Source: Desulfovibrionaceae bacterium (GTDB lineage Bacteria > Desulfobacterota > Desulfovibrionia > Desulfovibrionales > Desulfovibrionaceae). From it: a stretch of DNA of 64,000 nucleotides. Under the pieces are notes generated by a model. That model worked only from the letters and a program-made list of their open reading frames with translations, had not been told where the DNA came from and did no database searches. Of this stretch, positions 17,196 through 48,768 are shown piece by piece. A program made the translations under genes and the position numbers. The DNA lies in the NCBI GenBank assembly GCA_031550525.1, contig JAVBON010000026.1, positions 16,704 to 80,703 of the forward strand. The letters are read 5' to 3'. Every line of letters starts with the position of its first letter. The stretch's first letter is position 1.

Positions 17196-17206
17196 TTACG
17201 CGCCGC

Positions 17207-19366: not shown

Positions 19367-19422
19367 TCAGCTACTTAACAAGGCCTTTACCCATAAAAAA
19401 AAACAACTTATACTTACACAAT

Positions 19423-28338: not shown

Positions 28339-28375
28339 GCGCGATAAAGCCCCATTGCTGAACAGGATAGGCCGC

Positions 28376-30594: not shown

Positions 30595-30818
30595 TGAGCA
30601 TAAATGAATTTTTGGAAGAAATGCTGGATGTTTTGCAGCGTGACGACCCCATAAGCGCTGGCATGGCCCTTGCGGATATTGAAGAATGGGACTCCATGGC
30701 CATAATGGGCACGGCGGCTTTTTTGGACCGCCACTTCAACGTGCGCCTCAGCATGAACGACTTTAAAGGGTTTACCACCGTGGCCGACATAGCCAAAGCC
30801 GCGGGCATAAAAGCATGA
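30594..30818 (+). CDS. Acyl carrier protein (ACP 2)
   Basis: 74 aa with the motif IEEWDSMAIMG. The start overlaps the KASIII stop (TGATG). Confidence 0.8.
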   Translation: MSINEFLEEMLDVLQRDDPISAGMALADIEEWDSMAIMGTAAFLDRHFNVRLSMNDFKGFTTVADIAKAAGIKA

Positions 30819-33327: not shown

Positions 33328-33363
33328 ATCTGGTGGAAGAATATGGAAAAGGCGCCGCGTGCC

Positions 33364-33512
33364 AGGTTGTGTCTACATTCAGAGTGATTTTGCGCTCTGG
33401 CAGGGAAGCAAGGCTTTTAACCGAAAGAGTATACTCTTACGGTATTCGACTGAGGGGCAAAGCTTTGCAGACGCAGCCAGAGGGCAAAAGCGTCTGAATG
33501 TCGACACAACCT
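33364..33512 (+). mobile_element. 149-bp MITE-like element with ~20-bp terminal inverted repeats, copy A
   Basis: The ends are AGGTTGTGTCTACATTCAGA ... TCTGAATGTCGACACAACCT and the central palindrome is AAGAGTATACTCTT. It is about 90 percent identical by eye to 48620-48768. Confidence 0.8.
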
Positions 33513-33583
33513 GAGGCAGATTTATAAAATCTTGGCTGCGCCCAACCCCGCAATATGGCGGTAAACCGCCTTGACCTTGCAAC
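33513..33583 (-). repeat. Short-form intergenic repeat, reverse orientation, diverged copy abutting the MITE
   Basis: GAGGCAGATTTATAAAATCTTGGCTGCGCCCAACCCCGCAA...CCTTGACCTTGCAAC matches the reverse complement of the 71-bp family. Confidence 0.6.
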
Positions 33584-33628
33584 TGTCATAATCCGCGCTG
33601 CCTTGATTACACGGGTAAAGGATTTGCC

Positions 33629-34285
33629 ATGAGCGATAATACAACCAAATCAATAGTCATAGTCGGCAACTCCGGCTTTGCCCGCGAGTGCTACGCCATG
33701 CTGCGCGCCGTTATGCGGCGCGAGCCCGCGTTATCCGTAAAAGGTTTTTTAAGCTTTGAAGGTTACAAAGGCGACCTGAAAGAGCTTTCCGGCCTGCTGC
33801 TGGGCACTGACGACGAATACGCCCACCAGCCAGGCGAGTATGCCGTTATTGGCATAGGCGACCCGCACCTGCGCCGCAAGGCCTACCTTAAGCTAAGAGC
33901 CAGGGGCGTGCCCTTTTTCACCCTTATCCACCCCAACGCTTATGTGGATGAGGCCACCAGCGTGGGCGAAGGCTGCATTTTCGGCAGCAAGTGCTACATT
34001 AACTGCAACTGCGCCATCGGCCCCGGCAACCTCTTTAACGGGCTGGTACACATGGGCCACGACTGCACGGTGGGCGAGTGCAACTTTTTCGGCCCCAACG
34101 TGCAGATTTTGGGCGGAGTAAACATGGGCGGCTGCAACTCCGTTGGCGCTACCAGCGTTATTATGCCCGCCGCCCGCATTGGCAGCGGCAATATAATAGC
34201 CCCCTTGAGCGCCGTATACAAAGGCTGCCGCGACAACACCTATATGTCAGGCAACCCGGCGGTGAAAGTGGGAACGCGGGAATAG
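33629..34285 (+). CDS. NeuD/PglD-family left-handed beta-helix sugar N/O-acyltransferase
   Basis: The N-terminal Rossmann-like segment is IVIVGNSGFARECYAML. Hexapeptide repeats follow (VGEGCIFG, IGPGNLFNG, VGECNFFG, IGSGNII). Confidence 0.8.
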   Translation: MSDNTTKSIVIVGNSGFARECYAMLRAVMRREPALSVKGFLSFEGYKGDLKELSGLLLGTDDEYAHQPGEYAVIGIGDPHLRRKAYLKLRARGVPFFTLIHPNAYVDEATSVGEGCIFGSKCYINCNCAIGPGNLFNGLVHMGHDCTVGECNFFGPNVQILGGVNMGGCNSVGATSVIMPAARIGSGNIIAPLSAVYKGCRDNTYMSGNPAVKVGTRE

Positions 34286-34332: not shown

Positions 34333-35955
34333 TTATTCAAGCACGGCCCATACCGGCGCGCCCAGCGCAACATGGGCGTATTTATGCTCGAGATTTTTGA
34401 CCAGCGACGGCAAATAGCATTTTCTGGTGAAGACTATTACCGGTTTTGCGTCATCCGCAGTTAGGTCTTTGGGGTGGATAACCGGAATACCCTCCACTTG
34501 CGCGGGGTAGCCGGGCATATCTATTAAAAAGGCCACAGGTTTGGCGGCGGCGAACAGCCCCGCGAATTTTTTGTAAGAAGCGCCACAGCCCCAGAAGTAT
34601 ACTTCCTTTCCGGCCAGAGCGGCGGCTTTTTCCCGCAGGATTCGCCGATGATGCTCGCCGTAAAGCTCCCAAAACAATTCGTACAGCCTCAGGGAAAGTT
34701 TCAAACCTGACGCGGCGGCGAGAAAGGCTTCAAAATCCGCCTCCGGCAAGAGCGGCCTCAGGTAAAGCAGCATGCTGCGCTTATACAGCTCCTGCCCCTG
34801 GGCGTTATCTTCAAGCACAAAGGGGTATTGGTCCTTGAGCGGGTCAAAGGCCATGCCCTGGTACAAAAAATGACGCGGCGCCGGCAGCAGATGCGGCTCG
34901 CCGGCAAGGGGCAGAGCCGCCGCCGATCTCAAGGCCGCCTTGAAATCATCGTCACTGTCAACCTTGAATACATAGGGGTCGCCGTCAGCGAAGCTCAAGG
35001 GCACGTCTATGCCTTTTAGGTGCGACAAGGCGGCGTCATCTTCCACCAAATCCTCGCGGTAGTTGGATGGATACCAGCGCTCGGCAAAGGTCTCTATCTC
35101 AGCCGTGCTAAAACGCTTGTCCAGCACGGTTATATCCGTATCCATATTGCGCAGTTTCTTGTCTTTAAAAAGTTTCAGCAGGCCGGTGCTGAAAAGCTCG
35201 CTGGTATCGCCAAGGCGCTGGCGTTGCATGGGCAGGCACATGCCGCAGTGCGCGCACAGCTTTGACGCCTGCGCCTGAAACTCGTGCGGGGCGCGCCGCC
35301 ACCAGCCGGGCTCCACGGGCCATGCGTTGGCTCCGTCATGCAGGAGGCGGTCAATGGCCGCGCCCACCTCGCAAAAATATGCGCCGTTTATGTTTACGGT
35401 AGGGCTCCAGATGCGCTGCACCCAGCAGTTGTTTATGAGCTTCCATTTAAGGGCCTCATCCTGCACGGCGTCGCCCACGGCCAGGGTAAGCGGGTGGTGG
35501 CTGCACACCTCCTGCTGCGCCGCATCATGCGCGTTGTAGCGGATGGTGCGGTAAGTTCTGGTCATGTCGCAATCGCCCTCCGGCCACTCGCTCCAGGCAT
35601 ATTCCGGCACCCAGCTATATTTGGAATCCACCGCTGGTTTTGAGGCGATGGCGCGTTTTTTCATGCCCGGCAGGCCAGAGGTGAAAATATTCAGCTTTTC
35701 CTGCGGCAGGTGCCTGCGCAAAAGAGCGTTAACCTCGGCGAATTGCGGATGCATAAGAGGCTCGCCGCCTATTATGCTGACCATGGAGGGCCAGTCTTTA
35801 TACGCAATAATGGCGGCTTCTATTTTATCAAGGGGCATGTGCCTGCGCTGGTCCGTACGCAAATGCCGCGTATAGCGCGTGCAGTATATGCAGGTATTGG
35901 GGCATACCGACGTAATGTCGATGAGCGCGCTCCACGTTTTATGCATGTAATCCAT
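34333..35955 (-). CDS. Radical SAM enzyme with an extra Cys cluster and a ~200-aa C-terminal extension
   Basis: The radical SAM cluster is CPNTCIYC at residues 18-25, followed by IIGGEPLMH. A later CAHCGMC suggests an auxiliary cluster. I cannot assign the C-terminal domain (KEVYFWGCGASYKKF...). Confidence 0.75.
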   Translation of the reverse strand: MDYMHKTWSALIDITSVCPNTCIYCTRYTRHLRTDQRRHMPLDKIEAAIIAYKDWPSMVSIIGGEPLMHPQFAEVNALLRRHLPQEKLNIFTSGLPGMKKRAIASKPAVDSKYSWVPEYAWSEWPEGDCDMTRTYRTIRYNAHDAAQQEVCSHHPLTLAVGDAVQDEALKWKLINNCWVQRIWSPTVNINGAYFCEVGAAIDRLLHDGANAWPVEPGWWRRAPHEFQAQASKLCAHCGMCLPMQRQRLGDTSELFSTGLLKLFKDKKLRNMDTDITVLDKRFSTAEIETFAERWYPSNYREDLVEDDAALSHLKGIDVPLSFADGDPYVFKVDSDDDFKAALRSAAALPLAGEPHLLPAPRHFLYQGMAFDPLKDQYPFVLEDNAQGQELYKRSMLLYLRPLLPEADFEAFLAAASGLKLSLRLYELFWELYGEHHRRILREKAAALAGKEVYFWGCGASYKKFAGLFAAAKPVAFLIDMPGYPAQVEGIPVIHPKDLTADDAKPVIVFTRKCYLPSLVKNLEHKYAHVALGAPVWAVLE

Positions 35956-35988
35956 ATTACTCTCCAGCCAGACAGCGCCGCTGCAAAA

Positions 35989-36996
35989 CTATTCGTACAG
36001 GTTAACCGCTTCCGGCCTGCTTGCGCCGCGCAACAGGCGCGAGGACCGCACTATTTTCTCGGCGTTTATGCGGTTGCCCAGCAGCAGCACTTTTATAAGG
36101 GTGGCCGCATCGGTAAACTCCAGCAAAGAAGCCACTGTGGCGTCTGATATGGCGTCGCCCTCCTCTTTGCCCACGGCCACGCTGAGCCTGCCGGTGCAGA
36201 GGCTGAGGTAGTGCTCCAAAAACCAGCCGTAATCAGCGGCCAAGGCCTCGTCAAAACCTTTGGCGCGCACGTACGGCACAAGCTCCTCACGGATAAAATA
36301 GGTGTATACGGCCCGCTCCACCGTATCGGCACGGTCCTTCTCCCACCAGTAGTAGCCGTAGCCCACCAGATCGCTGCCCACGTATTTTTTGGCATTCATC
36401 AAAAAGAGCGCGGTCAGGTACAAATCTTCCACAAAGCGCAACACCTTGCTGGAATGGGCGGTTTCGCACACCGAAAGGCACAGGTCTTTGGAATAGAGCT
36501 TGTTCCACAACACGGTGCCGTGAATGTCCGTTTTGAGGTATTTGGTAAAAATATCGCGCCCTTCAAGTATTTCCGCAAAGGGGTCGCCCATATGAAAATA
36601 GCGCTTGAAATTGCCTATATTGTCTGTGAAGGCAGCGCGAAAATGCAGCACATCCGCCCCTGCTTCGTCAAACATGGCTACATGCCGGGCCAGAGTATCG
36701 TCACCTTTAAGGGTGTCGTCGGCATCGGCAAAGGCTATTATGCGGCCGGCAGCGCCCTCAATGCCCAAAAGCCTTGCCTCTTTGGTGTACACGCGCCGGT
36801 TGTTGTACAAGGCCCGCACGTTAAGCCCCTTGGCGCGGTAAGCGTCCAGCAGGTCGCCGCAGCTTTCTTCCGAGCAGTCATCTACCACCACAACTTCCAA
36901 ATCAACGCCCCGCTGCGCCAAAATGCTGTCAAACAGCACCGGCAGGCAATGCTTGTGGTTATGGTTGGGCACTATTATGGAAATTGTCGGCTGCAT
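35989..36996 (-). CDS. Glycosyltransferase family 2
   Basis: ISIIVPNHNHKHCLPVLFDSILAQ...VVVVDDCSEE...FADADD. Confidence 0.85.
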   Translation of the reverse strand: MQPTISIIVPNHNHKHCLPVLFDSILAQRGVDLEVVVVDDCSEESCGDLLDAYRAKGLNVRALYNNRRVYTKEARLLGIEGAAGRIIAFADADDTLKGDDTLARHVAMFDEAGADVLHFRAAFTDNIGNFKRYFHMGDPFAEILEGRDIFTKYLKTDIHGTVLWNKLYSKDLCLSVCETAHSSKVLRFVEDLYLTALFLMNAKKYVGSDLVGYGYYWWEKDRADTVERAVYTYFIREELVPYVRAKGFDEALAADYGWFLEHYLSLCTGRLSVAVGKEEGDAISDATVASLLEFTDAATLIKVLLLGNRINAEKIVRSSRLLRGASRPEAVNLYE

Positions 36997-37047
36997 TTTT
37001 CCTCCTGGTTATTGCTGGCAAGTAGCGGGCATAGCCATTGCCGCGCG

Positions 37048-39315
37048 TCAGTTACCGTTATTTGCGGAATCTGGCAGCATGGCCATAATATAATCAATAT
37101 TGACCTTTTCATGCTCGGCTATGCGCGGTAGCGCTATACGCGCAAAATCGGGGCATGTAAGCGCCGCCTTTTCTACCAGCTTGAAATCATTATGTGTTTT
37201 TGCATAATTAATCAGATCTCCAAAAACACTAAAACTTTTAGGCCCTAATATGGAAAAATAACGTCCGCCAAGGCGCCTGTTAACCGTGTTATAGCAAATC
37301 AATTCATCCAGGCCCCATTTGGCCCTATGCGCGGTCATATCCACATGCGTGCCGTAAAAAAGAGAGTCTTTATGCCTCCTGTATACGCTCATCGGCTCGT
37401 TAATAAAGCCTATTTTTCCAATTTCGGCATGCAAAATATGCCAGTACCAGTCGCCTGGCGTTAAATCCGGCACAAACCAATCCGGCAAACCGTCTTTAAA
37501 ACGCCAGCGGTACATTACGGAACCTGTCTGCATCATGTTCAGCCGCAGTAAATCCGTAAGATAATAAAACTGGCGCACCCCGCGCCGCAAATAGTTTTCT
37601 GAAGGGTAGTACTCTTCGTGCTCCGGCGTATCTTCAAACAATACCTTGGCAACATGAAAGCACACGGTACAATCCTGATGCTTGTCCAAAAAATCCGCCT
37701 GTTTTTGCAGCTTATGATCGTCAATAAAATAATCATCGCCGTCAAGCAACGCTACATAAGGGCTGTTGGCCCGGTTGAACATTTCCCAAATGCCTTCGCC
37801 TTCAAACAGCCATGGGTGGTGTATGTATGTTATCGAACCGGGGTGTTGCTTCGCGTATCCTTCAACAAGGCCTCTAATGCCGTCGCTTGCACCGGCATCC
37901 ATAATAAGATGGCGCACGGGAAAATCTGTTTTTTGAGCCAGCACGCTTTCAATATTATCCGCAATAAACTTCTCATGGTTGGCGGTAAGCGTACATACTG
38001 TGACCTTGTAGTCTTCAGCCGGAGTATCTCCAACCGCCACGCGGGCAAAATTTTCTCCAGCCGCGCGTTCCATGGCCTGTTTAAGCACAGCCATATCCGG
38101 TTTAAGCATGCATGAGGGAAACCGGCGTAACATTTCCAGCAAAAGAGCCGCAAAACCGTCTGGCAAACTTTTTACCGCCCTGGCCGCATCGTCAAAGCTC
38201 AAATCGCCGTACTGAGGCAGCAGGTCGCTTGCGGATAATTGCGGGAAGTCCGCCTTGCGGCCCGTTATTATTTCCACCTGCCTTATAAACGGCATGTATT
38301 TTTTGATAATATCATGGCGGAGATTGGCGCTTAATAATGAATGACGTTGCGGCTCACGCGCAAAAACCGTCATACATTCCATAATCGCCGGGTATAGCGC
38401 CGAAAATTCCCCATACCCGCGTTGCATATGCATATCGGCATATAAAGGCGAGCCATGCATGCCAAGCATAAGCATACTATAATACAGGTTCTGGATTGCA
38501 TTAATAAAAAACAGCAGCGCTGGCGGCAGCTTAAAATCAACCGGCCCGGCAGGGGGAATATGCTCGCCGGTATCTACCCACGCAGGCATAATGGACGCGT
38601 GCTCACATATCTTTCCGGCCAAAGCGCCGCCAAAGTCCGGCTCGCCATTATCAACCAGCACCTCAAGGCCCGCCAGGCCCCGCCCTTGCAGGCTATGCAG
38701 ATAAAGCAATCCGGCAAGCGGATTCACCGGCTCGTCCTTTAGCGAGCTGCTAATTAAAAGACCCGGAGTTTCAAGAAGTTGACGGTAGGTAACTGGCGTA
38801 TGAGCCACGGCTTTTGACAACACGCCGTACTCAAGCAGAGACTCCATCTCTATATCAGGCCGGGCGCAAGCCCATAAAAAAGACTGACCCGCATTGGGGC
38901 AAACAGCGCGGGTTTGTTCGTATACATGTTTGATATAGTCGGGAAAATAACCGTAAAACGGCCAGAACAAACACACGCGGCTATCATTGCCGGTGCTTGT
39001 TTCGCGCTTGGCGGCAAGCCAGTCAAAATTCTGCTGGCTATATGCCGCCGGTACGGGCAGTATTCCGCTGAAGACCAGCTTTGTTGGGGAATCCGGGGCG
39101 ATATCAAACATGCCGTGCGCAGCAATAAGGCCGTGTGACTGAATAAAATCGCGGTTTAAAGTCAAAACCCCGTCGGCAGCAAAAATATGCCTGAAATTGC
39201 CCAATACATGTACTATTTTTCCAATTCCCATATTATACACCCCGGCCCAATATGCATGCCAATACCCAATAAAACCCGGAGCCATGCCATAACCGCGCAT
39301 ATCTTGTTTAAGCAA
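37048..39315 (-). CDS. Two-domain protein: ~430-aa N-terminal domain of unknown function plus a C-terminal GT2 glycosyltransferase
   Basis: The GT2 part is VTVCTLTANHEKFIADNIESVLAQ...LLDGDDYF. The start is uncertain: the track TTG is at 39315, an ATG is at 39300, and no clear RBS is visible. Confidence 0.7.
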   Translation of the reverse strand: MLKQDMRGYGMAPGFIGYWHAYWAGVYNMGIGKIVHVLGNFRHIFAADGVLTLNRDFIQSHGLIAAHGMFDIAPDSPTKLVFSGILPVPAAYSQQNFDWLAAKRETSTGNDSRVCLFWPFYGYFPDYIKHVYEQTRAVCPNAGQSFLWACARPDIEMESLLEYGVLSKAVAHTPVTYRQLLETPGLLISSSLKDEPVNPLAGLLYLHSLQGRGLAGLEVLVDNGEPDFGGALAGKICEHASIMPAWVDTGEHIPPAGPVDFKLPPALLFFINAIQNLYYSMLMLGMHGSPLYADMHMQRGYGEFSALYPAIMECMTVFAREPQRHSLLSANLRHDIIKKYMPFIRQVEIITGRKADFPQLSASDLLPQYGDLSFDDAARAVKSLPDGFAALLLEMLRRFPSCMLKPDMAVLKQAMERAAGENFARVAVGDTPAEDYKVTVCTLTANHEKFIADNIESVLAQKTDFPVRHLIMDAGASDGIRGLVEGYAKQHPGSITYIHHPWLFEGEGIWEMFNRANSPYVALLDGDDYFIDDHKLQKQADFLDKHQDCTVCFHVAKVLFEDTPEHEEYYPSENYLRRGVRQFYYLTDLLRLNMMQTGSVMYRWRFKDGLPDWFVPDLTPGDWYWHILHAEIGKIGFINEPMSVYRRHKDSLFYGTHVDMTAHRAKWGLDELICYNTVNRRLGGRYFSILGPKSFSVFGDLINYAKTHNDFKLVEKAALTCPDFARIALPRIAEHEKVNIDYIMAMLPDSANNGN

Positions 39316-39392
39316 AGATAAATGAGGTTAACCGCCGCAGGCATACTTTGCTCAAGTTCTCAAAAAGGCATATAAAGCAATTGCCATGTACA

Positions 39393-39408
39393 AGCAACAT
39401 ACGTGCCA
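39393..39408 (-). promoter_or_regulatory. Consensus sigma54 promoter facing the 37048-39315 / GT2 / radical SAM genes
   Basis: The reverse strand reads TGGCAC-GTATG-TTGCT, an exact match to TGGCAC-N5-TTGCW. It lies about 65-80 nt upstream of the candidate starts. Confidence 0.65.
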
Positions 39409-39583
39409 AAACAGCCTTAACCATATTACGATATACGCAATTACCCCTAATTCATGCGGCATTGTGCCTAAACACATAAACAACACCAGTTCTAAAGAAC
39501 GCGCGTATTCATCCGAATAGTCTCTTGAGCCGGTTTTTTATCAGGTAAAATTCATCAATCTTCAAATACTATCAGGTAACATT

Positions 39584-40846
39584 ATGTACGATAAAGATTT
39601 TTATGATGAAAATCACAAGTACTCCATCAATTCCGCAAAAGAGGTAATCGCATATATCGAAAAAATATTGCCCGGAATCGCCACTGTTGCCGATATAGGA
39701 TGCGGCATGGGCGCATGGCTGAATGAATGGAAAAAGCATGGCAAAAAAGTTTACGGTTTCGATAACAATGAAATGCCGGATAATGACTGGTTGCTGGAGC
39801 GCAGGGAGTTCACGAAGTATGACCTCGCTCAGCCGCTGCCCTTGCCGGATGCCAAATTCGACCTGTGCATGTCTCTGGAGGTTGCGGAACACTTGGATGC
39901 AACCCATGCCGACACATTTATAAGAAGCATATGCCAATATAGCGATCTTGTGCTGTTTAGCGCCGCTATTCCGGGGCAAACCGGAATAAACCACGTTAAT
40001 GAGCAGTGGCCGCAGTATTGGGTTAAAAAATTTATGGCCAACGGGTTTTATGCCTATGATATTCTACGGCTGCCGTTTTGGAATAACCATGGCGTGGCCT
40101 GGTGGTATTCACAGAATATGCTGATTTTTGCCCGTGAAAACAGTAAATATGCCACTATGCTGAATGAGAAACATGAAAGGAAGGAATATATTTTTCCACT
40201 TGTGCATCCAAAGTGCCTGTATATGTATAGAGAAATGTATGAAGAAGCGTTAAATACAAGCCACAATATGGAAATTCCATCAGATTTAAAAGCATATGAG
40301 CGAATACATTACGTTGAACAGACAAAAATACCTACCCACCTTACGGATAAAGAAAAATTTATACTATACGCTCTTGCCGGCTCGGCAGCATCAAACGGTA
40401 AAATAAATTTTGTCGAGCTCGGCTCATATCTTGGCGCGTCTTCCATATGCATAGCTTCAGCCCTTACGGGCAAGGCCCGGCTTTATTGCGTTGACACCTG
40501 GCAAAATGAAGGAATGCGGGAAGGCCTGCGCGATACATACAGTGAATTTATAACCAATATAGATATGTTATCGCGAACGATTACTCCCTTACGCGGTAAA
40601 AGCGCTGAAGTGGCGCGCACTTTTAACAACAATGTGGATTTCTTGTTTATTGACGCAGATCATAATTATGAAGGGATTATGGCCGATCTGAACGCATGGT
40701 GGCCAAAACTTCTACCTGGGGCAATAGTGCTCATGCACGATGTAGGCTGGGCCGAAGGCCTGAAAAAAGCGCTTGACGATTTTGTCCGCCCCCGTACACA
40801 CTCGCATGGCCGTTTGCCAAATATGTTTTGGGGAGTCGTGAAGTAA
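39584..40846 (+). CDS. Fusion of two class I SAM-dependent methyltransferase domains
   Basis: The N-terminal domain has VADIGCGMGAWL...LCMSLEVAEHL. The C-terminal domain has FVELGSYLGASS...FLFIDADHNYEG (Methyltransf_24/CmcI-like). Confidence 0.75.
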   Translation: MYDKDFYDENHKYSINSAKEVIAYIEKILPGIATVADIGCGMGAWLNEWKKHGKKVYGFDNNEMPDNDWLLERREFTKYDLAQPLPLPDAKFDLCMSLEVAEHLDATHADTFIRSICQYSDLVLFSAAIPGQTGINHVNEQWPQYWVKKFMANGFYAYDILRLPFWNNHGVAWWYSQNMLIFARENSKYATMLNEKHERKEYIFPLVHPKCLYMYREMYEEALNTSHNMEIPSDLKAYERIHYVEQTKIPTHLTDKEKFILYALAGSAASNGKINFVELGSYLGASSICIASALTGKARLYCVDTWQNEGMREGLRDTYSEFITNIDMLSRTITPLRGKSAEVARTFNNNVDFLFIDADHNYEGIMADLNAWWPKLLPGAIVLMHDVGWAEGLKKALDDFVRPRTHSHGRLPNMFWGVVK

Positions 40847-41039
40847 ACGGCGCTGAAGTTTGCCTGCAAATATGCGGAGGTGGGTTGTTAAGCCTTTAAA
40901 AGTATCCGCCTGACACTTGCATATTCATTGTGTAAAATATTCAATGCTATTGATTAGTTATGGTTACAAAAAACGATTTAAAATTACGTTAAAACAGCAA
41001 TTTTGAAATGATTGAGTTACAATTCTCAAGAGCAATTTA

Positions 41040-42275
41040 ATGCTAAATAAACAATTTTTTGTGACAATACATACAAAAATAAAAATTTTGTCCTATGTAA
41101 CCACGGAAAGAATTGCCAAATATATAACCAATCCTAAAACCGCTCTGTGGTTGTCGCAGATATTGCTGCGTCTTGGCATGAACAAGCACGCTCTTATATT
41201 GGCAAAAAATTTTTTGCGGTTGGAATGCCCGCTGCCAGCCGACGCCCCTTGCGCCCCCAAACCGCCCCTCCACAAAAGCGACCGTATTGTTGAGGTCTCG
41301 GTTATCATCCCCACTTGCAACCGGGCGGAATCACTTAACCGTCTGCTTGAATCACTAAAAAATCAAAACTGTGCCGCTGAAAATTTTGAAGTCATAGTAG
41401 TCAATAACGCTTCTTCAGATCATACCGATGAAATTTGCCGCCGCCACTCAACATCTTTTAAAAATTTTACCGTTGTAAACGAAAAAAAGCCCGGCCTGCT
41501 GGCCGCCAGGCATGCGGGCTGGGCAGCGGCATCTTCCAATATTCTCACTTTTTGCGATGATGACATTGAGCCGAACCCGTTATGGCTTTCAACCATAATC
41601 GGTACCATGCAAAGCAGCCCTAACGTAATGCTTATGGGCGGCAACAATACGCCAACCTTTGAGGTTGCCCCGCCCGCATGGATGGACGAGTTGTGGCATG
41701 AGGCGGGTGGCGTTAGGTATAACCCATGCTACAGCCTAATAACCGGCATAAAAGAAGTAATGGAGGCCCCGCTGCCAGATCTGGTGTTCGGGTGCAACTA
41801 CACGGTAAGACGGCAAGCATTGGAAGCCGCCTTGGGTTTTCAACCGGATATAATGCCCAAAACCCTATTGCGGGGCGGTGGCGAAAGCGGAATAATCGCG
41901 CCTATGCTGGCGCTTACAAACGGCAAAGTGCTGCTTCACCCGGACGCATCAGTAAAACACCACATGCCCGCCGCGAGGCTGAGCCATGATTATTTGTACA
42001 AACGTGGAATAGCTATTACCATAAGTGCATTGTACGAATACTTCCGATGCCAAAAGACGCGTTCAGGGCTAATATCCTACAACCGTCAACATCCAGTAGC
42101 GCTGCAACTGTTGTTTGCAGCGCAGCAGGCCGCCTTCAAGGCATACTTGCATGCGGTATTGTCAAATCAGGAGTTACGGGCGTGGATTAACCTGCCCTCT
42201 TACTTAGGCAATGAAAGCCCGGAAATAATGCTGCCGGATGACGCTTTCATCTTTGGAACCCAACTGAAATGGTAG
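41040..42275 (+). CDS. Glycosyltransferase family 2 with a ~90-aa N-terminal extension
   Basis: VSVIIPTCNRAESLNRLLESLKNQ...VIVVNNASSDHT...FCDDD. The start is uncertain. Confidence 0.75.
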   Translation: MLNKQFFVTIHTKIKILSYVTTERIAKYITNPKTALWLSQILLRLGMNKHALILAKNFLRLECPLPADAPCAPKPPLHKSDRIVEVSVIIPTCNRAESLNRLLESLKNQNCAAENFEVIVVNNASSDHTDEICRRHSTSFKNFTVVNEKKPGLLAARHAGWAAASSNILTFCDDDIEPNPLWLSTIIGTMQSSPNVMLMGGNNTPTFEVAPPAWMDELWHEAGGVRYNPCYSLITGIKEVMEAPLPDLVFGCNYTVRRQALEAALGFQPDIMPKTLLRGGGESGIIAPMLALTNGKVLLHPDASVKHHMPAARLSHDYLYKRGIAITISALYEYFRCQKTRSGLISYNRQHPVALQLLFAAQQAAFKAYLHAVLSNQELRAWINLPSYLGNESPEIMLPDDAFIFGTQLKW

Positions 42276-42282
42276 AACCAAT

Positions 42283-42714
42283 ATGACAGAATCGATTGAA
42301 CATAACGGGCTTGTTATTTGCCTGATCTTGCGTGGCAATGTTTCTTCACCCGGCATCCATTTTTTCACGCCGGAATCTTTCTCGCAGCAACTTGGCTACA
42401 TGAACCGTCCTGCCGGCCATGCCATACCGCCGCACACGCATAACCCCATACCGCGCGTAATAGAATGGACGCAGGAAGTGCTTTTTATAAAAAGCGGCAA
42501 GGTACGGCTGGATTTATACGCGCCTGAAAGCCGCGAATACCTTGAAAGCCATATACTCAGGCCAGGCGACGTGGTTTTGCTGGCCCACGGAGGTCACGGG
42601 CTGCATATGCTTGAAGAAAGCGAGATTATTGAGGTAAAGCAGGGTCCCTATGTCGGCAATGCCGACAAAACCCGCTTTCAGCCTGTACAAGATGCCGAAC
42701 TAAACATAAAATGA
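42283..42714 (+). CDS. Cupin-fold protein (WbuC-like)
   Basis: 143 aa. GHAIPPHTHNP...EVLFIKSGKVRLDLY...GDVVLLAHGGHG is a cupin two-motif pattern seen in polysaccharide loci. Confidence 0.55.
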   Translation: MTESIEHNGLVICLILRGNVSSPGIHFFTPESFSQQLGYMNRPAGHAIPPHTHNPIPRVIEWTQEVLFIKSGKVRLDLYAPESREYLESHILRPGDVVLLAHGGHGLHMLEESEIIEVKQGPYVGNADKTRFQPVQDAELNIK

Positions 42715-42718
42715 CGGC

Positions 42719-43633
42719 ATGAGCATACTATGCGCCACTACCCGCGCCGTTCGCAACCTTGCGGATAGAGCGCATAAATGGGTGTATCGCAACCACGAGC
42801 TGCCCTCCCTGATAAAACAATACAAACCGGGGGTGACTGCGCCGTGGTCTCCCAGCTATATCGCGGCGCGCAACCACTTTGCGCTGCAACAAATAAATTC
42901 TCCCGCGTTGTCCGGCTTATTCGCCGGTTCAGGCAACAACACGGGCTTTCTGCCGGAAGGATACGGCGTAAGTTTTGACGAGCGCTGCGTGGAATGGCCA
43001 TGGGCTTTGGCAAATATGCAAAAAGAAGAAACGCGCGTGCTGGATGCCGGTTCCGCCTTGAACCATTGGCACATTTTAAACCTGCCGGTCTGGGAACATA
43101 AAAAGCTTGATATTTACACTCTCGCTCCAGAGCCGTACTGCGCCCCGGCCGCAAATATTTCATACCTGTTCGGCGATTTGCGCTCAACACCTTACAAAAA
43201 CGGCGAATTTACGCTGATGATTTCAATTTCCACCCTTGAGCACATAGGTATGGACAATCAGGCTTACTCCGGCCGGAAGGACCATGCCGAGCATGATCAT
43301 GACGCCTTGTTTCACACCCTGAGCGAGCTTAAACGGATTATCAAACCTGGGGGCAGGTTGTTGTTCACCGTACCCTTTGGCGCATACGTGAATTGCAAAA
43401 CATTCAGACAGTTTGATGCCGCTTTGCTTGCCCGTTGCCGCGAGCATTTTGCCCCGTCGGAAGCTAGCGAAGCCTTCTTTCTATACTCGGCCTCGGGCTG
43501 GCAGGCCGTTTCTGGCGCGGAATGCGCCAACGCGTCATATGTTTTGTCGGATTACAACCCCAAAAACTTTGCAATACAACCTGATCTGGCCGCTGCGGCC
43601 CGCGCGGTCGCCTGTTGCCGGTGGCGTGTATAA
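42719..43633 (+). CDS. Class I SAM-dependent methyltransferase
   Basis: VLDAGSALNHW...ISISTLEHIG...LKRIIKPGGRLLFTVPFG. Confidence 0.65.
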   Translation: MSILCATTRAVRNLADRAHKWVYRNHELPSLIKQYKPGVTAPWSPSYIAARNHFALQQINSPALSGLFAGSGNNTGFLPEGYGVSFDERCVEWPWALANMQKEETRVLDAGSALNHWHILNLPVWEHKKLDIYTLAPEPYCAPAANISYLFGDLRSTPYKNGEFTLMISISTLEHIGMDNQAYSGRKDHAEHDHDALFHTLSELKRIIKPGGRLLFTVPFGAYVNCKTFRQFDAALLARCREHFAPSEASEAFFLYSASGWQAVSGAECANASYVLSDYNPKNFAIQPDLAAAARAVACCRWRV

Positions 43634-44760
43634 TGAAAATTTTCATCCAGGTCTGCACCCCCATGCTGGGCGGAAACGAGCTTGAGTACGTGACGGATGC
43701 CGTCTCTACCGGCTGGATATCCTCTTCCGGCAAATATGTTACCGAATTCGAAAAGGCCTTTGCCGCTTATTGCGGGGCCAAGCACGGCATTGCCGTGTGC
43801 AACGGCACAGTGGCCCTGCATCTGGCCCTTGCAGCCATGGGCATAGGGCCGGGCGACGAAGTAATCATCCCCTCCTTTACAATGGCGGCCTCGGCCTTTG
43901 CCGTGTGTTACACCGGCGCCATGCCGGTGTTTGCCGATGCGGATGCGGCCACATGGAACATCAGCCCCACTGCCATAGCCGCCAAAATAACCCCGCGCAC
44001 CAAGGCGATAATGCCCGTGCACATTTTCGGCAACCCTTGCGATATGCGGGCAGTTAACGCCATTGCCGCCGAACACGGCCTAGTGGTGCTGGAAGATGCG
44101 GCTGAAGCGCATGGGGCGGAATTTGGCGGCAAAAAAACCGGCATGCTTGGGTCCATTGCAGCCTTCAGCTTTTTCGCCAATAAAAACGTCACCACCGGCG
44201 AAGGCGGCATGGCGCTTACAAACAACGACGCGCTGGCAGAGAAATGCCGCTACTACCGCAACATGTGTTTTCCGCCAAATGCGCCGCGTACCTACCTGCA
44301 TGACGATATCGGCTTCAACTACCGCATGAGCAACCTGCACGCCGCCATAGGGCTGGCCCAGACGGAGAAAGCCGACCATTACCGCGCCTTGCGCGTAAAA
44401 AACGGCCTGTTATACCGCAGGCTTTTATCCGGCCTGCCGGGCGTTGCCTTGCAGCAAGACCAGCCTGGCGGCAAAAACGTATTCTGGATGAACGGCATTT
44501 GTATAAATCCCAAAACCTACGGGCGCACCCGCAACGAGCTTGTGGAGCATTTGCGGCAACACGGCGTGGAGACCCGCCTATTCTTCAACGGCATGCACCG
44601 CCAGCCTGCCCTGCGCAAATACGGCTGCGACTGCTCGGGGGCCTATCCAATAAGCGACCTGCTGGCCGATAACGGTTTTTATCTGCCCAGCGGCAGCGGC
44701 CTTATAGATGCGCAAATCGAATTCATCTGCTCGCTGGTACGCGATTTTCAAAGGGATTAA
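43633..44760 (+). CDS. DegT/DnrJ/EryC1/StrS family PLP sugar aminotransferase (perosamine-synthase-like N-terminus)
   Basis: I moved the start to the ATG at 43633, giving a TAATG overlap. Contains GNELEYVTDAVSTGWISSSGKYVTEFEKAFA, NGTVALHLAL and FSFFANKNVTTGEGG, which includes the PLP lysine. Confidence 0.85.
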   Translation: MKIFIQVCTPMLGGNELEYVTDAVSTGWISSSGKYVTEFEKAFAAYCGAKHGIAVCNGTVALHLALAAMGIGPGDEVIIPSFTMAASAFAVCYTGAMPVFADADAATWNISPTAIAAKITPRTKAIMPVHIFGNPCDMRAVNAIAAEHGLVVLEDAAEAHGAEFGGKKTGMLGSIAAFSFFANKNVTTGEGGMALTNNDALAEKCRYYRNMCFPPNAPRTYLHDDIGFNYRMSNLHAAIGLAQTEKADHYRALRVKNGLLYRRLLSGLPGVALQQDQPGGKNVFWMNGICINPKTYGRTRNELVEHLRQHGVETRLFFNGMHRQPALRKYGCDCSGAYPISDLLADNGFYLPSGSGLIDAQIEFICSLVRDFQRD

Positions 44761-44762
44761 CC

Positions 44763-45539
44763 GTGGCAGCATTTAAAGATTACGCCCGCTACTACAACCT
44801 GCTCTATGCCGGCAAAGACTATGGCGCGGAGGCCGCTTTCGTGCTGGCAAGGCTGCTGGGCGCCGGCTGCCGCCCCGCTTCCGTACTGGACCTGGGCTGC
44901 GGCACCGGGCGGCATGCGCTGGAGTTTGCCAGTAAAGGCATTGCGGTGGAAGGGGTAGATCTTTCTCCAACCATGCTGCAACTGGGCCGCGAGGCCATTG
45001 GCAAAACAGATCTCGGCCCGGCCTGCCCCACGCCGGTTCTGCATGAGGGCGACGTACGCTCCGTGCGCCTTGGCAAAAATTTTGACGCGGCGGTCAGCCT
45101 GTTCCACGTTATGAGCTACCAGAACACCGAGCAAGACGCCCTGGCCATGCTGAATACTGCCCGCGCCCACCTTGCGCCGGGGGGCCTCTTTTTTTTCGAT
45201 TTCTGGCACGGGCCGGGCGTGCTGCGCGCCTTGCCAGAAAAACGCGTGCGCGCCATGGGTGACGGGCATACGGCAATAAAACGCGTTGCAACACCCGTGC
45301 ACCGCCTGGCCGACAATATCGTCGAGGTGCATTACGATGTGGAAATTACAGATAAAATAAAAAACCAGGCGTCCAATATTAAGGAAGAGCATCATATGCG
45401 CTATTGGTTTCTGCCGGAACTGCGCCACCTGGCCGGACAGGCAGGTTTTACGGCTGCCGCCTGCGGCGGCTGGATGCATGAGCGCGCCCCGGGCCTTGAA
45501 GACTGGAATGCGTGGATGCTCTTCAAACTCGCGGCCTGA
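44763..45539 (+). CDS. Class I SAM-dependent methyltransferase
   Basis: GTG start. Contains YYNLLYAGKDY, VLDLGCGTGRHALEFASKG and LAPGGLFFFDFWHG. Confidence 0.8.
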   Translation: MAAFKDYARYYNLLYAGKDYGAEAAFVLARLLGAGCRPASVLDLGCGTGRHALEFASKGIAVEGVDLSPTMLQLGREAIGKTDLGPACPTPVLHEGDVRSVRLGKNFDAAVSLFHVMSYQNTEQDALAMLNTARAHLAPGGLFFFDFWHGPGVLRALPEKRVRAMGDGHTAIKRVATPVHRLADNIVEVHYDVEITDKIKNQASNIKEEHHMRYWFLPELRHLAGQAGFTAAACGGWMHERAPGLEDWNAWMLFKLAA

Positions 45540-45635
45540 TTGCAGCATGAGCCAATATAAATACTGAAGCATACATTTCTCGCGGCATGACACGTAACTG
45601 TGGAATGACTGACATACTTCACGCATAACCAACAG

Positions 45636-46745
45636 ATGAGCCAAAACCGCATGCAAACAGCCGTTGCCGTTTTTCACCCGGAAGGGAATGTATCCAATAA
45701 TCCGCACCTTTGGGCGCTAACCCGCATTCTGCATGATAAAGGCATCAAGGTTGACGTATTTGCGCGGTTTGATGGGCGCAACCCTTATCAGGAGGATCCT
45801 TCCGCAGCGTACACCCCGCATGTGCTGCGCGGCAACGAGCCTATGCGGCTGCCCCACGGCAATTATGCCTTTGTATTGGGAGTGGACGAAGGTATTATTG
45901 AAGCGGCGGCAGAGGCCCAACGGCATGGTTTGCCCTATGCGCATATTTCTTACGAAATCTTTTTTGAAGACGAATTGGAACCATTCCCGGATTTTATGGC
46001 GCTTAACCATGCCATAAAGCCGGCGCTGAAAAATTCCAGATTTTCCGTGCTGCAGGATAATTTGCGCGCCAGGCTCTACGCCCTTGAGTACGGAGTGCCC
46101 CAGGAGCGCATCATGCAAATGCCCGTTGCAGGGGCCGCGGTTATTCCGTATCAGCCCAGCAACTACCTGCACACGCTTGCGGGGCTGCCCGCAAGCGCAA
46201 AAATACTGCTGCACATGGGCGTAATAGGCCAATGGGTTATGACGGACTGGCTTATAGAACGGGCCTCCACCCTGCCCCCGGACTGGGCCATGGTAATACA
46301 CGGGCGTTACGGAAAACCCGCCGACACCTCCAAATACGAGCATGAGCGGGTATATTACACCAACTGCCCCAAAGCCGATTTTGACCAAATGAAAGATCTG
46401 GTACAGTCCGCATCTTGCTGTGTCTCACTGTTCCGCAATTGGCCAACACACCCGCGCCTGATGAAAAACATCACAAATATAGGCCTTTCTTCAGGCAAAT
46501 GCTCCACCGCCCTGCAGCACGGCATCCCCGTTATGGTACAAAACGGGGGCGAAATGGCCGCGCTGGTGCGCGAGTATGCAGCCGGAATCTGCCTGAATAC
46601 AACTCCAGACCAATCTTTAGCCCTGCTGGAACAGCTTGCCCCGGTGGGGGATACCGTGGGCAACTGCCACAGGCTTTTTTCCGAGCGCTTGTCCATAAAC
46701 AACTTCATGCCCGAATTTATGGCGCGTATGGGGCTTTCCGCCTAA
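45636..46745 (+). CDS. Hypothetical protein, possibly a divergent GT-B-fold glycosyltransferase
   Basis: 369 aa. The only cues are its length, a two-lobed alpha/beta-like pattern and a C-terminal LSSGKCSTALQHGIPVMV...AALVREY segment. The family was not recognised. Confidence 0.4.
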   Translation: MSQNRMQTAVAVFHPEGNVSNNPHLWALTRILHDKGIKVDVFARFDGRNPYQEDPSAAYTPHVLRGNEPMRLPHGNYAFVLGVDEGIIEAAAEAQRHGLPYAHISYEIFFEDELEPFPDFMALNHAIKPALKNSRFSVLQDNLRARLYALEYGVPQERIMQMPVAGAAVIPYQPSNYLHTLAGLPASAKILLHMGVIGQWVMTDWLIERASTLPPDWAMVIHGRYGKPADTSKYEHERVYYTNCPKADFDQMKDLVQSASCCVSLFRNWPTHPRLMKNITNIGLSSGKCSTALQHGIPVMVQNGGEMAALVREYAAGICLNTTPDQSLALLEQLAPVGDTVGNCHRLFSERLSINNFMPEFMARMGLSA

Positions 46746-47088
46746 TCGCGCCACACCGTGTTGGAAAGCGGCATACCGCGACCTCTATGCACAAACATAT
46801 ATTCTAAAACAGATTATTATTGCCAACCAGCGGAAAAATAACGTAAATTTCCGTTTAGACGTAATCCATAAAGCCCTTCGACTTTTTCAAGGTTAAAATG
46901 CTCTGGCCGCAAGGTGAAACATGAAGCCATTTACGGCGGTTACGCTAAAAATGCCGGATATAGCCCCATGGCTGGTTGCAGTTGACTGGAAAATGTGAAA
47001 TTAGAAGCAATCTGCACATGAAAATTAAAACTGCCGGGCCGAAAAAATTACATCTTGGCATCATACTGGTAGTTAAGGATATTTCCTG

Positions 47089-48168
47089 ATGGAAGAAAAA
47101 TACCGTAGAAAAAGGCCCGCGGGCATGACCATAGTGGAAGCCCAGTCCGAAGCCCATAAAATAGCTTTTTACCCCATGCTCTTTCAGGCAGTGCGCTCGC
47201 TTATAAACTTTGGCGTGCTTGAAGCCGTGGTGGAGCGTAAAAAAAACGGCGCAAGCCTGCCGGAGCTGGCCAGGCTTTGTTCCATATCGGATTACGCGGC
47301 GGCCCTGCTGCTGGACATAGCCGTTCATGCCGACATAATGCTGCTGGAAAACGGCCTCTACAAGCCCACCAAGCTGGGCGAATGCCTGCTGGAAGACAAA
47401 AGCGTGCGCGCCAATATGGATTTTATGCACGATGTTTGTTACCAGGGCGCATTTTATCTTGAAGAATCCTTCAAAAGCGGCAAGCCTGAAGGGCTTAGGG
47501 TATTCGGCGACTGGAACACGGTTTATCAGGGCCTGTCACAACTTCCGCCCAAGGCGCATGAGAGCTGGTTTAAGTTTGACAACCTTTATTCCGATTTAGC
47601 CTTTGAGCAGGCGGCAAAAATAGTACTCGCAGGCTCTCCCGCCCTTGTTTACGACATAGGCGGCAATACCGCGCGCTTCGACCTGACCATACTTAATGCC
47701 GACCCCGATGTGAAAGTGCGCATCTTCGACCTTGAGCAGCAACTGCCCAAAGCCCGCCAGACCTTGGAAAAAGCAGGGCTCATGCATAGGGCCGAACTAC
47801 ACCCCGTAAACATGCTTGACAGCGAGACGCAAATACCCCCCGGCGCCGACGCCATGTGGATGAGCCAGTTTCTGGATTGTTTCAGCCCTGGCGAAATTAT
47901 GGGCATACTGCAAAAACTGGCCGGAGCCATGGGCGAAAACACCCGCCTGTTCATACTTGAGCCGTTTATAGACAAGCAAAACCGCGCGGCCGCGCTATCG
48001 CTACTAAACACGTCGCTGTACTTTACCTGCATAGCCAACGGCAACAGCCGCATGTACCACCAGTGCGACATGCTGGAATTTTTGGAACGCGCCGGGCTTA
48101 AGCTGCACAAAGCTCACCAGGGCATAGGCCGCTTCAACTATACATTGCTGGAATGCACCAAACCCTGA
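47089..48168 (+). CDS. O-methyltransferase family 2-like SAM methyltransferase with an N-terminal winged-helix/dimerisation region
   Basis: LINFGVLEAV...LVYDIGGNTARF...VRIFDLEQ...ADAMWMSQFLDCF matches the Methyltransf_2 architecture. Confidence 0.7.
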   Translation: MEEKYRRKRPAGMTIVEAQSEAHKIAFYPMLFQAVRSLINFGVLEAVVERKKNGASLPELARLCSISDYAAALLLDIAVHADIMLLENGLYKPTKLGECLLEDKSVRANMDFMHDVCYQGAFYLEESFKSGKPEGLRVFGDWNTVYQGLSQLPPKAHESWFKFDNLYSDLAFEQAAKIVLAGSPALVYDIGGNTARFDLTILNADPDVKVRIFDLEQQLPKARQTLEKAGLMHRAELHPVNMLDSETQIPPGADAMWMSQFLDCFSPGEIMGILQKLAGAMGENTRLFILEPFIDKQNRAAALSLLNTSLYFTCIANGNSRMYHQCDMLEFLERAGLKLHKAHQGIGRFNYTLLECTKP

Positions 48169-48343: not shown

Positions 48344-48619
48344 CGCTTCGTACTCCCGCTCAACGGGTTGAAGCCGCAATATAGAGAACGTCCCGGCTTG
48401 TTCAGCCGGGACGTTACGGGCAGCCCGAGGCCTGACTGCCGTTTGCCATTGGCGGCTGGGGCTTTCGCCTTACATGTCCGCAAGGTCAGCATTGCTCTGC
48501 CGGAATCCATCAGCCTTACGGCGCCCGGAATGGAAACCGGCGGCAATTTAAACCGCATACCGCGCAACACAGAACAGTTAAAATATATTCCGGCCTACAT
48601 GCGATTAAACAGCACGGCT

Positions 48620-48768
48620 AGGTTGTGTCGACATTCAGAGTAATTTTGCTCTCTGGCAAGGAATCAAGGCTTTAAACCGAAAGAGTATACTCTTAAGGTA
48701 TTCGACTGAGGGTCAAAGCCTTGCTGACGCAGACAGCGGGCAAAAGCGCCTGAATGTCGACACCACCT
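48620..48768 (+). mobile_element. 149-bp MITE-like element, copy B (same orientation as copy A)
   Basis: AGGTTGTGTCGACATTCAGAG ... CCTGAATGTCGACACCACCT, with the same central AAGAGTATACTCTT palindrome. Confidence 0.8.

Follow-up and report, generated by a model that had tools for sequence, protein, structure and literature searches.

A mosaic island of soluble glycosylation enzymes, probably for a methylated, N-acylated amino-sugar glycan, in a Desulfovibrionaceae genome

Gene islands for attaching acylated, methylated amino sugars to flagellin or O-antigen are already known; they influence motility, recognition by phages and by the immune system, and the diversity of strains. In the experimentally defined flagellin viosamine island of Pseudomonas syringae (pv. 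tabaci), whose product is N-(3-hydroxybutanoyl)-2-O-methyl-viosamine and to which the PAK island of P. aeruginosa has counterparts, the gene set comprises an aminotransferase, a methyltransferase, a large glycosyltransferase (GT), a beta-ketoacyl synthase III (KASIII), an acetyltransferase, a ketoreductase (KR) and an acyl carrier protein (ACP) (PMC3927599). The flagellar glycosylation locus of Campylobacter jejuni includes an FkbH-domain gene, cj1302 (PMC7099621). Here we analyzed a stretch of 64,000 nucleotides from a Desulfovibrionaceae bacterium (GenBank assembly GCA_031550525.1, contig JAVBON010000026.1, positions 16,704 to 80,703 of the forward strand), referred to below as the window and numbered from its first nucleotide. 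The region at 27.7-48.2 kb of the window is one mosaic island of about 20 kb of soluble glycosylation enzymes, and its gene families support a tailoring module that would make and attach a methylated, N-acylated amino-sugar glycan.

The island has the same parts as the viosamine and PAK islands (vioA, vioB, vioS, vioR, acp, vioM and vioT, or orfA-N), namely a DegT aminotransferase, a left-handed beta-helix N-acyltransferase (NAT), a KASIII, a small ACP, a ketoreductase, a methyltransferase and a very large GT. The product of those islands is of the N-(hydroxyacyl), O-methylated 4-amino-4,6-dideoxyhexose type. In the window, DegT is the VioA/OrfA equivalent, and a KASIII, an ACP and a reductase are accompanied by a VioB-type NAT, which scores below the cut-off of its model. 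A preliminary description of positions 34333-48168 had proposed a glycan-tailoring module with a methylated, acylated product, and the DegT, NAT and methyltransferase genes support this proposal. The genes listed there are real and correctly placed, but the block was cut too short: the genes at 27708-34285 are counted in the island because they travel with the others in relatives (loci with related genes carry L numbers below). An N-acylated amino sugar is supported, but the acyl machinery lies outside the block as first drawn. The upstream operon, absent from that block, encodes two ACPs, a VOC protein, two KASIII enzymes, a ketoreductase, an FkbH protein and the NAT:

27708-27935, plus strand: ACP 1, 75 aa, serine motif DSM (weak NCBIfam ACP match, E 2e-4)
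27901-28338, plus strand: VOC/glyoxalase-fold protein, methylmalonyl-CoA epimerase-like (PF13669 E 8e-13; TIGR03081 27 bits, below cut-off)
28304-29455, plus strand: KASIII (FabH-like) condensing enzyme 1 (ACP_syn_III and ACP_syn_III_C; PRK12880 264 bits)
29416-30594, plus strand: KASIII (FabH-like) condensing enzyme 2, the copy kept in related islands (41-44% identity to the KASIII of L006, L007, L016, L018 and L020)
30594-30818, plus strand: ACP 2, 74 aa, with a WDSM motif (36-41% identity to an ACP-sized gene of related islands)
30815-31558, plus strand: SDR ketoreductase, FabG-like (adh_short_C2 E 1e-43), syntenic in every related island
31555-33327, plus strand: FkbH-domain/HAD-IIIC protein of the glyceryl-ACP loader type (TIGR01686 FkbH 287.7 bits, cut-off 146.65; TIGR01681 74 bits, cut-off 35.75)
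33629-34285, plus strand: left-handed beta-helix NAT of the NeuD/PglB/VioB type (Hexapep and PglD_N; TIGR03570 137 bits, cut-off 160.8), syntenic in relatives

The Cys-His-Asn motifs are intact in both KASIII enzymes and read GCSGY, HQAN and GNQN, respectively, in the first. The ACP-sized gene of related islands matches PF00550 in L007 and L179 and does so weakly in L180. With both models above cut-off, the FkbH protein combines the FkbH domain and the HAD-IIIC phosphatase core of glyceryl-ACP loaders. A weaker sigma-54-like site, TGGCAC-N5-GGGC, precedes the operon at 27606-27620 but is not significant window-wide.

The aminotransferase, the methyltransferases and a small cupin are encoded on the plus strand further downstream (GC3 denotes the GC content at third codon positions):

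39584-40846, plus strand: MT-MT, a methyltransferase fusion (Methyltransf_11 at residues 37-114; Methyltransf_24 at residues 277-387, E 9e-25; GC3 0.47)
42283-42714, plus strand: small cupin, 143 aa, weakly WbuC-like (TIGR04366 E 1e-4, below cut-off)
42719-43633, plus strand: MT304, a probable class I methyltransferase and the weakest assignment (Methyltransf_11 24.2 bits, gathering threshold 21.2)
43615-44760, plus strand: DegT pyridoxal phosphate-dependent sugar aminotransferase, perosamine-synthase/LegC-like (PF01041 E 2e-120)
44763-45539, plus strand: MT258, of the nucleotide-amino-sugar N-methyltransferase type (Methyltransf_25 E 1e-15)
47089-48168, plus strand: OMT, a dimeric small-molecule-type O-methyltransferase (dimerisation domain PF21212 and PF00891 Methyltransf_2), at the island edge

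The PF01041 match bears out the early naming of the DegT enzyme. Its closest relative in the Protein Data Bank (PDB) is GDP-perosamine synthase (3bn1, E 1.5e-98, 334 bits), and its score against the LegC family, 320 bits, is under the cut-off of 420. MT258, whose gene comes immediately after that of DegT here as well as in L010, L096 and L097, is closest to the DesVI/TylM1/CalS10 type of sugar N-methyltransferase, to which we assign it by homology; a PDB search ranked DesVI (3bxo, E 1e-19), CalS10 (E 2e-19) and TylM1 (E 1e-16) highest, with residues 6-198 covered. The MT-MT fusion has the PDB relatives 2hnk and 4pca; its Methyltransf_24 half resembles cation-dependent O-methyltransferases, and its C-terminal domain is 39% identical to the stand-alone MT24 gene of L012. 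MT304 has a degenerate motif I (VLDAGSALN) and no match in PDB or NCBIfam. The place of OMT in the island is uncertain. With 398.8 bits against NCBIfam NF053543, the FlxJ family, it stays under the cut-off of 560 and is not a member, and nothing relevant was found in the literature on 'FlxJ'. Each of the five class I methyltransferase domains of the preliminary description matches Pfam. The methyltransferase-to-GT ratio that had seemed unusual is about 5:4 here and, with 3-4 methyltransferases per sister island, typical.

The cupin is 74% identical to its copy in L010, a gene of the same size adjoins DegT in L096 and L097, and the cupin gene stands beside an aminotransferase in every case examined. 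The cupin name comes only from the weak WbuC match, which is below cut-off; no PDB relative was found.

Four soluble GTs are encoded in the island. All three GT2 enzymes named previously were confirmed by Pfam, and the fourth, a possible GT-B protein, proved to be a divergent member of that fold according to the Pfam matches of its homologues and a weak profile match to Gtf3:

35989-36996, minus strand: GT2a, the core-conserved GT (PF00535 E 3e-22; 42-58% identity to L006, L016, L018 and L020 genes)
37048-39315, minus strand: GT2-755, an orphan N-terminal region of about 400 aa followed by a C-terminal GT2 domain at residues 437-570 (755 aa, or 727 aa if started at 39231)
41040-42275, plus strand: GT2c (PF00535 E 6e-28; GC3 0.53; 32% identity to the L012 GT2 at the same relative position)
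45636-46745, plus strand: divergent, Gtf3_C-like GT-B glycosyltransferase (14 homologues; family profile against PDB Gtf3 structures E 0.006)

Two of the homologues of the GT-B protein match PF00534, and the precomputed annotation of two lists PF26337 (Gtf3_C); a PDB search with the single sequence gave nothing significant. Over 332 aa, GT2a shares 33% identity with the GT2 half of a protein from Desulfovibrio desulfuricans SFAD67 (L020) in which GT2 and Maf domains are fused. The C-terminal half of GT2-755 is 44-47% identical to the P0047-52 proteins and to a 687-aa protein of L018. Its first ~430 residues had been described as matching nothing, and indeed a HMMER search of 1.84 billion representative proteins with the N-terminal 408 aa found no relative, only one weak 43-residue match. 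A hidden Markov model of the P0047-family N-termini scored this region within the range of shuffled sequences, so the two are not homologous, and the AlphaFold model from a 7-sequence alignment reached a predicted local distance difference test (pLDDT) score of 38. GC3 of GT2-755 is 0.50-0.53, and the codon-position GC pattern of its N-terminal 400 aa indicates that the orphan N-terminus is coding sequence. It could be a new acceptor-recognition domain.

All 19 island proteins were predicted to be soluble and cytoplasmic; each has at most one hydrophobic segment, and that a marginal one. When the main non-overlapping open reading frames (ORFs) of at least 180 aa in the 64-kb window were scanned with Pfam, no match pointed to an exporter, a polymerase, a priming transferase or a nucleotide-sugar synthase, in agreement with the absences noted beforehand (Wzx/Wzy/Wzz, ABC exporter, initiating transferase, nucleotide-sugar synthase). 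In particular, the polytopic Wzx, the Wzy, the Wzz and the priming phosphoglycosyltransferase of a Wzx/Wzy cluster had no Pfam match there, nor did wzm/wzt. Seven sister islands were surveyed, to about 10 kb on each side if the contig extended that far; L006, L007, L179 and L180 had no called exporter, polymerase or priming transferase, and none was found among the genes examined in L016, L018 and L020.

The sister islands place this gene set in a wider class. The core arrangement DegT-KASIII-ACP-KR-NAT-GT2a-(large GT)-radical SAM is shared by L006, a JGI metagenome contig, and by L016, L018 and L020, from three Desulfovibrionaceae genomes (L020 is from the cultivable D. desulfuricans SFAD67, NZ_CP176628.1, 281-302 kb). 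Judged by gene content, Desulfovibrionaceae share a core that pairs a predicted twitch-type radical S-adenosylmethionine (SAM) enzyme with a putative N-acyl amino-sugar module. A second island type, in L007, L179 and L180, is headed by the 755-aa-GT family and reads GT, UDP-sugar dehydrogenase, GT4, KASIII, ACP, KR, NAT, GT2 and methyltransferases. A metagenome scan with the GT2a alignment, which captures generic GT2 motifs, returned 2 short true relatives, L098 and L099, among 80 loci. In L016, the closest sister island, a sulfotransferase-Methyltransf_24 fusion (11633-13321) directly follows the radical SAM gene, which may point to sulfation of the glycans, besides methylation, in islands of this class.

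The radical SAM enzyme of the island is encoded next to GT2a:

34333-35955, minus strand: radical SAM enzyme (PF04055) with a twitch-like core at residues 1-300, a linker and a C-terminal Rossmann-like module at about residues 440-540

In 26 aligned sequences the CX3CX2C motif (C18/C22/C25) is nearly invariant and C177, C195, C234 and C237 are invariant. The extra CxxCxxC cluster described earlier stands only for C234 and C237, as its third cysteine, C240, is not conserved. Cluster cysteines together with C-terminal auxiliary-cluster cysteines are the sequence hallmark of twitch/SPASM enzymes of the BtrN/SpeY type. PF04055 was the only Pfam match, without a Pfam SPASM domain; all NCBIfam matches were far below cut-off, and a sequence search of PDB gave nothing significant. 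With the AlphaFold (AF2) model (pLDDT 88.8), Foldseek retrieved SpeY (7wzv, E 3e-6, TM-score 0.50 on the target) and BtrN (4m7t, E 3.5e-4). The modelled enzyme thus resembles the twitch dehydrogenases SpeY and BtrN, from which its activity is predicted. The preliminary description had also included C-methylation, for which no evidence was found, and a role as C-methylase was ruled out by the missing B12 domain and the twitch dehydrogenase-type fold.

A word-indexed search found only 46 relatives of the enzyme, and a pattern scan of genomes in GTDB found 241; the latter come from many anaerobic lineages and range over Desulfovibrionaceae, Geobacteraceae, Omnitrophota, Planctomycetota, bacteria of the candidate phyla radiation and archaea. 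The core of about 300 aa can stand alone or be joined to GT-like domains, and in Desulfovibrionaceae it can carry an extension of 240 aa; members are repeatedly found beside or fused with GTs. The family is widespread, GT-linked and unstudied. The Rossmann-like module of about 100 aa belongs to no Pfam family. It recurs in L019 at 7001-7300 and 9337-9615, where it ends both a double methyltransferase and a radical SAM enzyme of the SPASM type, and in L020 at 18800-19021, within a separate 185-aa ORF. Its presence on methyltransferases as well as radical SAM enzymes of these islands suggests a common domain for docking or for binding and recognizing substrates.

Base composition shows how the island was assembled. 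Windowed GC was 0.43-0.52 at 37-43 kb, where a drop had been seen by eye at about 37-43.5 kb, and about 0.55-0.60 elsewhere. GC3 was 0.47-0.53 in the 755-aa GT, the MT-MT fusion, GT2c and the cupin, intermediate (0.60) in MT304, and 0.62-0.73 in the radical SAM enzyme, GT2a, DegT, MT258, the GT-B protein, OMT and the entire acyl operon, close to the 0.63-0.75 of the flanking genes. Because low GC3 is restricted to 37.0-42.7 kb, the island is a mosaic carrying one recently exchanged cassette. Horizontal acquisition, as first proposed, holds for this cassette, whose codon usage is foreign, but not for the remainder of the block with its host-like GC3; a single foreign insertion of the whole block was ruled out by the host-like codon usage outside 37.0-43.6 kb. 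Between GT2a/NAT and the radical SAM gene, relatives encode a GT8-like protein of about 710-750 aa; here this slot is filled by the unrelated GT2-755. Sister islands are mosaic too, with neighboring genes in L010 spanning GC3 values of 0.37-0.66. An integrase was found in L003 only.

A long, imperfectly palindromic element is present in two directly oriented copies that flank the NAT-to-OMT segment, nearly exactly the block first described:

33361-33512: palindromic repeat copy A, 152 nt, 90% identical to copy B (hairpin -80.9 kcal/mol, z = -7.9)
48617-48768: palindromic repeat copy B, 152 nt, 90% identical to copy A, in direct orientation

The repeat has no Rfam match. The Logan contigs L001 and L002 end within the left copy, and because they break there, the element is suggested to be a multi-copy repeat resembling miniature inverted-repeat transposable elements (MITE) or repetitive extragenic palindromes (REP).

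From these assignments a pathway can be proposed. A 4-keto-6-deoxyhexose nucleotide would be supplied by housekeeping genes outside the window, and the perosamine-synthase-like DegT would aminate this keto-sugar to a 4-amino-4,6-dideoxyhexose, whose amine could then undergo N-methylation by MT258 (DesVI/TylM1-like), N-acylation by the NAT (VioB/PglD-like), or both. The acyl group, presumably short and hydroxylated (hydroxyacyl or glycerate-derived), would be built on the two dedicated ACPs by the two KASIII enzymes, the ketoreductase, the VOC-fold epimerase-like protein and the FkbH glyceryl-ACP loader. O-methyltransferases would cap free hydroxyls, and the four soluble GTs would assemble the glycan. 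The twitch-type radical SAM enzyme may abstract hydrogen from a sugar carbon independently of oxygen, leading, by analogy to BtrN and SpeY, to oxidation of an alcohol to a ketone or to epimerisation. It seems unlikely, though conceivable on BtrN/BtrS logic, that this enzyme and DegT together install or relocate the sugar amino group independently of oxygen and NAD within protein or polysaccharide glycosylation. For the amino-sugar and acyl branches the family assignments are observed, and we infer chemistry and product from them; since the precursor genes are not in the window, the identity of the sugar follows only from the nearest characterised homologues.

As the acceptor of the glycan we tentatively favor flagellin, which may be glycosylated in the cytoplasm before export, after the pattern of the flagellin-glycosylation islands of Pseudomonas (viosamine) and Campylobacter. 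It is the likeliest candidate because no lipid-carrier, flippase, polymerase or exporter function was found here or in the seven sister islands. The gene set is that of the viosamine island, the FkbH-domain gene has a precedent in the C. jejuni flagellar locus, and in L020 a 615-aa fusion (14595-16442) joins a GT2a homologue in its N-terminal half to an MptE-like/MAF_flag10 domain (58 bits) in its C-terminal half. Beside this fusion lie a cytidylyltransferase, a SPASM radical SAM enzyme and three methyltransferases, in an island beside a methyl-accepting chemotaxis protein gene; L018 has a cytidylyltransferase without Maf, and L012 a NeuB. Correctly oriented promoter motifs, a weaker point for flagellin, lie within the 270-bp divergent promoter region between the GT2-755 and MT-MT genes:

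39394-39408, minus strand: sigma-54 -24/-12 consensus (TGGCACGTATGTTGC; TGGCAC-N5-TTGC), about 80 nt upstream of the GT2-755 gene
39493-39520, plus strand: sigma-28-like motif TAAAG-N15-CCGAATAG, about 65 nt upstream of the MT-MT gene

The sigma-54 match is the sole perfect one in the window, with a chance expectation of 0.6 per window, and is suggestive as a candidate island promoter; the sigma-28-like motif has 2 matches against 1.4 expected. Several observations weigh against flagellin. Neither motif is significant window-wide. Pfam detected no flagellar gene in the 64-kb window, and no Maf domain, NeuB-type synthase or CMP-transferase either; a tblastn search with the termini of Salmonella FliC (E < 0.01) found no flagellin in the window or in L001-L097. 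Sugar-precursor genes of the gmd, rmlAB or pseB type do not occur in the window. Sugars of the perosamine type are classic constituents of O-antigens, and in L003 a short relative of the radical SAM enzyme adjoins an ABC exporter. Finally, the amino-sugar cassette also turns up in true clusters for exported polysaccharides, L096 and L097. The cupin-DegT-N-methyltransferase-GT-B string recurs in the following loci, in L012 only in part:

L010: cupin (74% identity to the window gene), DegT (73%), methyltransferase (56%) and GT-B (44%), in a cluster with a GDP-mannose-dehydratase-like SDR
L012: only DegT, MT24, GT2 and GT-B-like genes, beside a NeuB-containing cluster
L096: cupin-DegT-N-methyltransferase-GT-B, with Wza/Wzz-type genes (Poly_export, Wzz)
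L097, metagenomic: MT24-GT2-GT2-cupin-DegT-methyltransferase-GT-B, directly downstream of Wzm (ABC2_membrane) and Wzt (ABC_tran and Wzt_C)

These last two loci bear on a second reading, a real possibility that we nevertheless do not hold to be probable, in which the island makes repeat-unit or cap sugars for an ABC-transporter-dependent O-polysaccharide or lipopolysaccharide, built on undecaprenyl phosphate at the cytoplasmic face, with wzm/wzt and wecA-type genes elsewhere. A methylated N-acyl or N-methyl perosamine would then serve as the chain terminator read by the carbohydrate-binding domain of Wzt. The plus-strand operon (MT24-GT2-cupin-DegT-N-methyltransferase-GT-B) is collinear with L097 beside its Wzm and Wzt(Wzt_C) genes, and L096 carries the cupin-DegT-methyltransferase-GT-B block with Poly_export and Wzz; moreover, the cupin is weakly similar to WbuC, a family of O-antigen clusters, DegT is nearest to GDP-perosamine synthase, and JGI labels one homologue of the GT-B-like protein 'O-antigen biosynthesis protein'. 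Soluble GTs and methyl caps are typical of the ABC-dependent pathway. However, wzm/wzt normally lie inside such clusters, and none was found in 64 kb or, over the flanks of about 10 kb that the contigs allow, in seven Desulfovibrionaceae-type sister islands; the D. desulfuricans relative (L020) carries a Maf domain, and the acyl module fits flagellin islands. Flagellin and an O-antigen cap accordingly stay the two leading candidates among the acceptors first suggested, while the S-layer glycan was rejected as it has no supporting gene.

We consider it improbable that the region consists of two unrelated units, in which the acyl operon and the FlxJ-like OMT would make a small lipid- or polyketide-like metabolite (e.g., a glycerate-derived product of the butenolide/tetronate type, or a glycolipid) to be decorated by the GTs. 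In tetronate and similar pathways the glycerate-unit set consists of FkbH, an ACP and a FabH-like enzyme, OMT has the architecture of small-molecule O-methyltransferases with a near-threshold FlxJ-family score (398.8 against 560), and every enzyme is soluble; but KASIII-ACP-KR-NAT always adjoins DegT and GT genes in relatives, there without FkbH or OMT, the NAT belongs to a sugar N-acyltransferase family, and no polyketide synthase, nonribosomal peptide synthetase, thioesterase or dehydratase set is present. Oligosaccharyltransferase-dependent (PglB/PglL-type) protein glycosylation or another envelope glycoconjugate with lipid-linked steps encoded elsewhere is very improbable: some Desulfovibrio have a PglB-type enzyme, and PglD-like NAT and DegT enzymes also serve bacillosamine-type sugars, but no PglB-, PglC- or PglK-like gene was found in the window or the sister loci, and among the aminotransferases of solved structure perosamine synthase is the one nearest to DegT.

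The remainder of the window is that of a Desulfovibrio-like genome, with genes including FdhE, a sigma-54 response regulator and glycine-cleavage genes. Upstream of the island lies a formate dehydrogenase, predicted from its sequence to be a selenocysteine enzyme, as the in-frame TGA indicates:

22273-25311, plus strand: formate dehydrogenase catalytic subunit, with an in-frame TGA at 22852-22854 (motif ...RV-U-HGPT) and FdhB and FdhE downstream

The exact proteins were carried by only 2 Logan metagenome assemblies. An FdhE-based search of GTDB species genomes found no close relative, so that a comparison of the island with an empty site had no partner. The Logan contigs L014 (SRR23967707) and L015 (SRR23967709), with identical fdhB-fdhE, stop 29-265 bp past fdhE, i.e., at the left edge of the island, a pattern that fits strain variability or boundary repeats. 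About 8 kb upstream of the island are genes for a multi-PAS sensor kinase and a sigma-54-dependent response regulator (15747-19366, minus strand), adjoined by a GT9 heptosyltransferase-family gene (19285-20520). The compositionally most foreign gene of the whole window is a 341-aa ORF without Pfam match beside the glycine-cleavage genes (57219-58244, minus strand; GC 0.37, GC3 0.33). No tRNA or Rfam family was detected in the window.

Compared with the viosamine and PAK islands, the island described here adds a second KASIII, a second ACP, an FkbH loader and a VOC protein, as well as the predicted twitch radical SAM enzyme, the putative N-methyltransferase for sugars and a total of five methyltransferase domains. 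In place of VioT/OrfN-like GTs it has GT2 and Gtf3-like ones, the enzyme nearest to its DegT is GDP-perosamine synthase and not a dTDP-viosamine enzyme, and no flagellar genes adjoin it within the 64-kb window. With the C. jejuni flagellin O-glycosylation locus (cj1293-cj1342) it shares the character of a hypervariable, soluble sugar-tailoring island with an FkbH-domain protein. The C. jejuni locus has extra ACPs, a FabH paralogue and methyltransferases, glycosylation takes place in the cytoplasm, and the locus is not known to include an exporter. The Maf domain and cytidylyltransferase of the sister island L020 are C. jejuni-like features, whereas the window lacks a nonulosonic-acid synthase, a CMP-transferase and a Maf gene, and its sugar appears to be a 6-deoxyhexosamine, unlike pseudaminic or legionaminic acid.

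BtrN (butirosin) and SpeY (spectinomycin) have the CX3CX2C cluster and the C-terminal auxiliary-cluster subdomain in common with the radical SAM enzyme. Both act on carbohydrate-like substrates, and DegT-family aminotransferases belong to the same pathways. Sequence identity to them is 13-18% and TM-scores are about 0.5 when normalised to the target; the enzyme of the island has an extra 240-aa C-terminal extension with the Rossmann-like module, and its context is one of GTs and not an aminoglycoside cluster. With ABC-dependent O-polysaccharide clusters (methyl-capped, Wzm/Wzt with Wzt_C) the island shares soluble GT2/GT4 enzymes and methyltransferases, in a gene order like that of L097, but neither Wzm/Wzt nor a WbdD-like kinase/coiled-coil terminator or priming enzyme occurs within 64 kb. 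Taken together, the island concept itself is familiar, and its theme is extended here to gut and environmental sulfate reducers; new are the conserved, uncharacterised family of twitch radical SAM enzymes and the orphan GT domain. Defining the radical SAM reaction would bring an anaerobic step into the chemistry of sugar tailoring.

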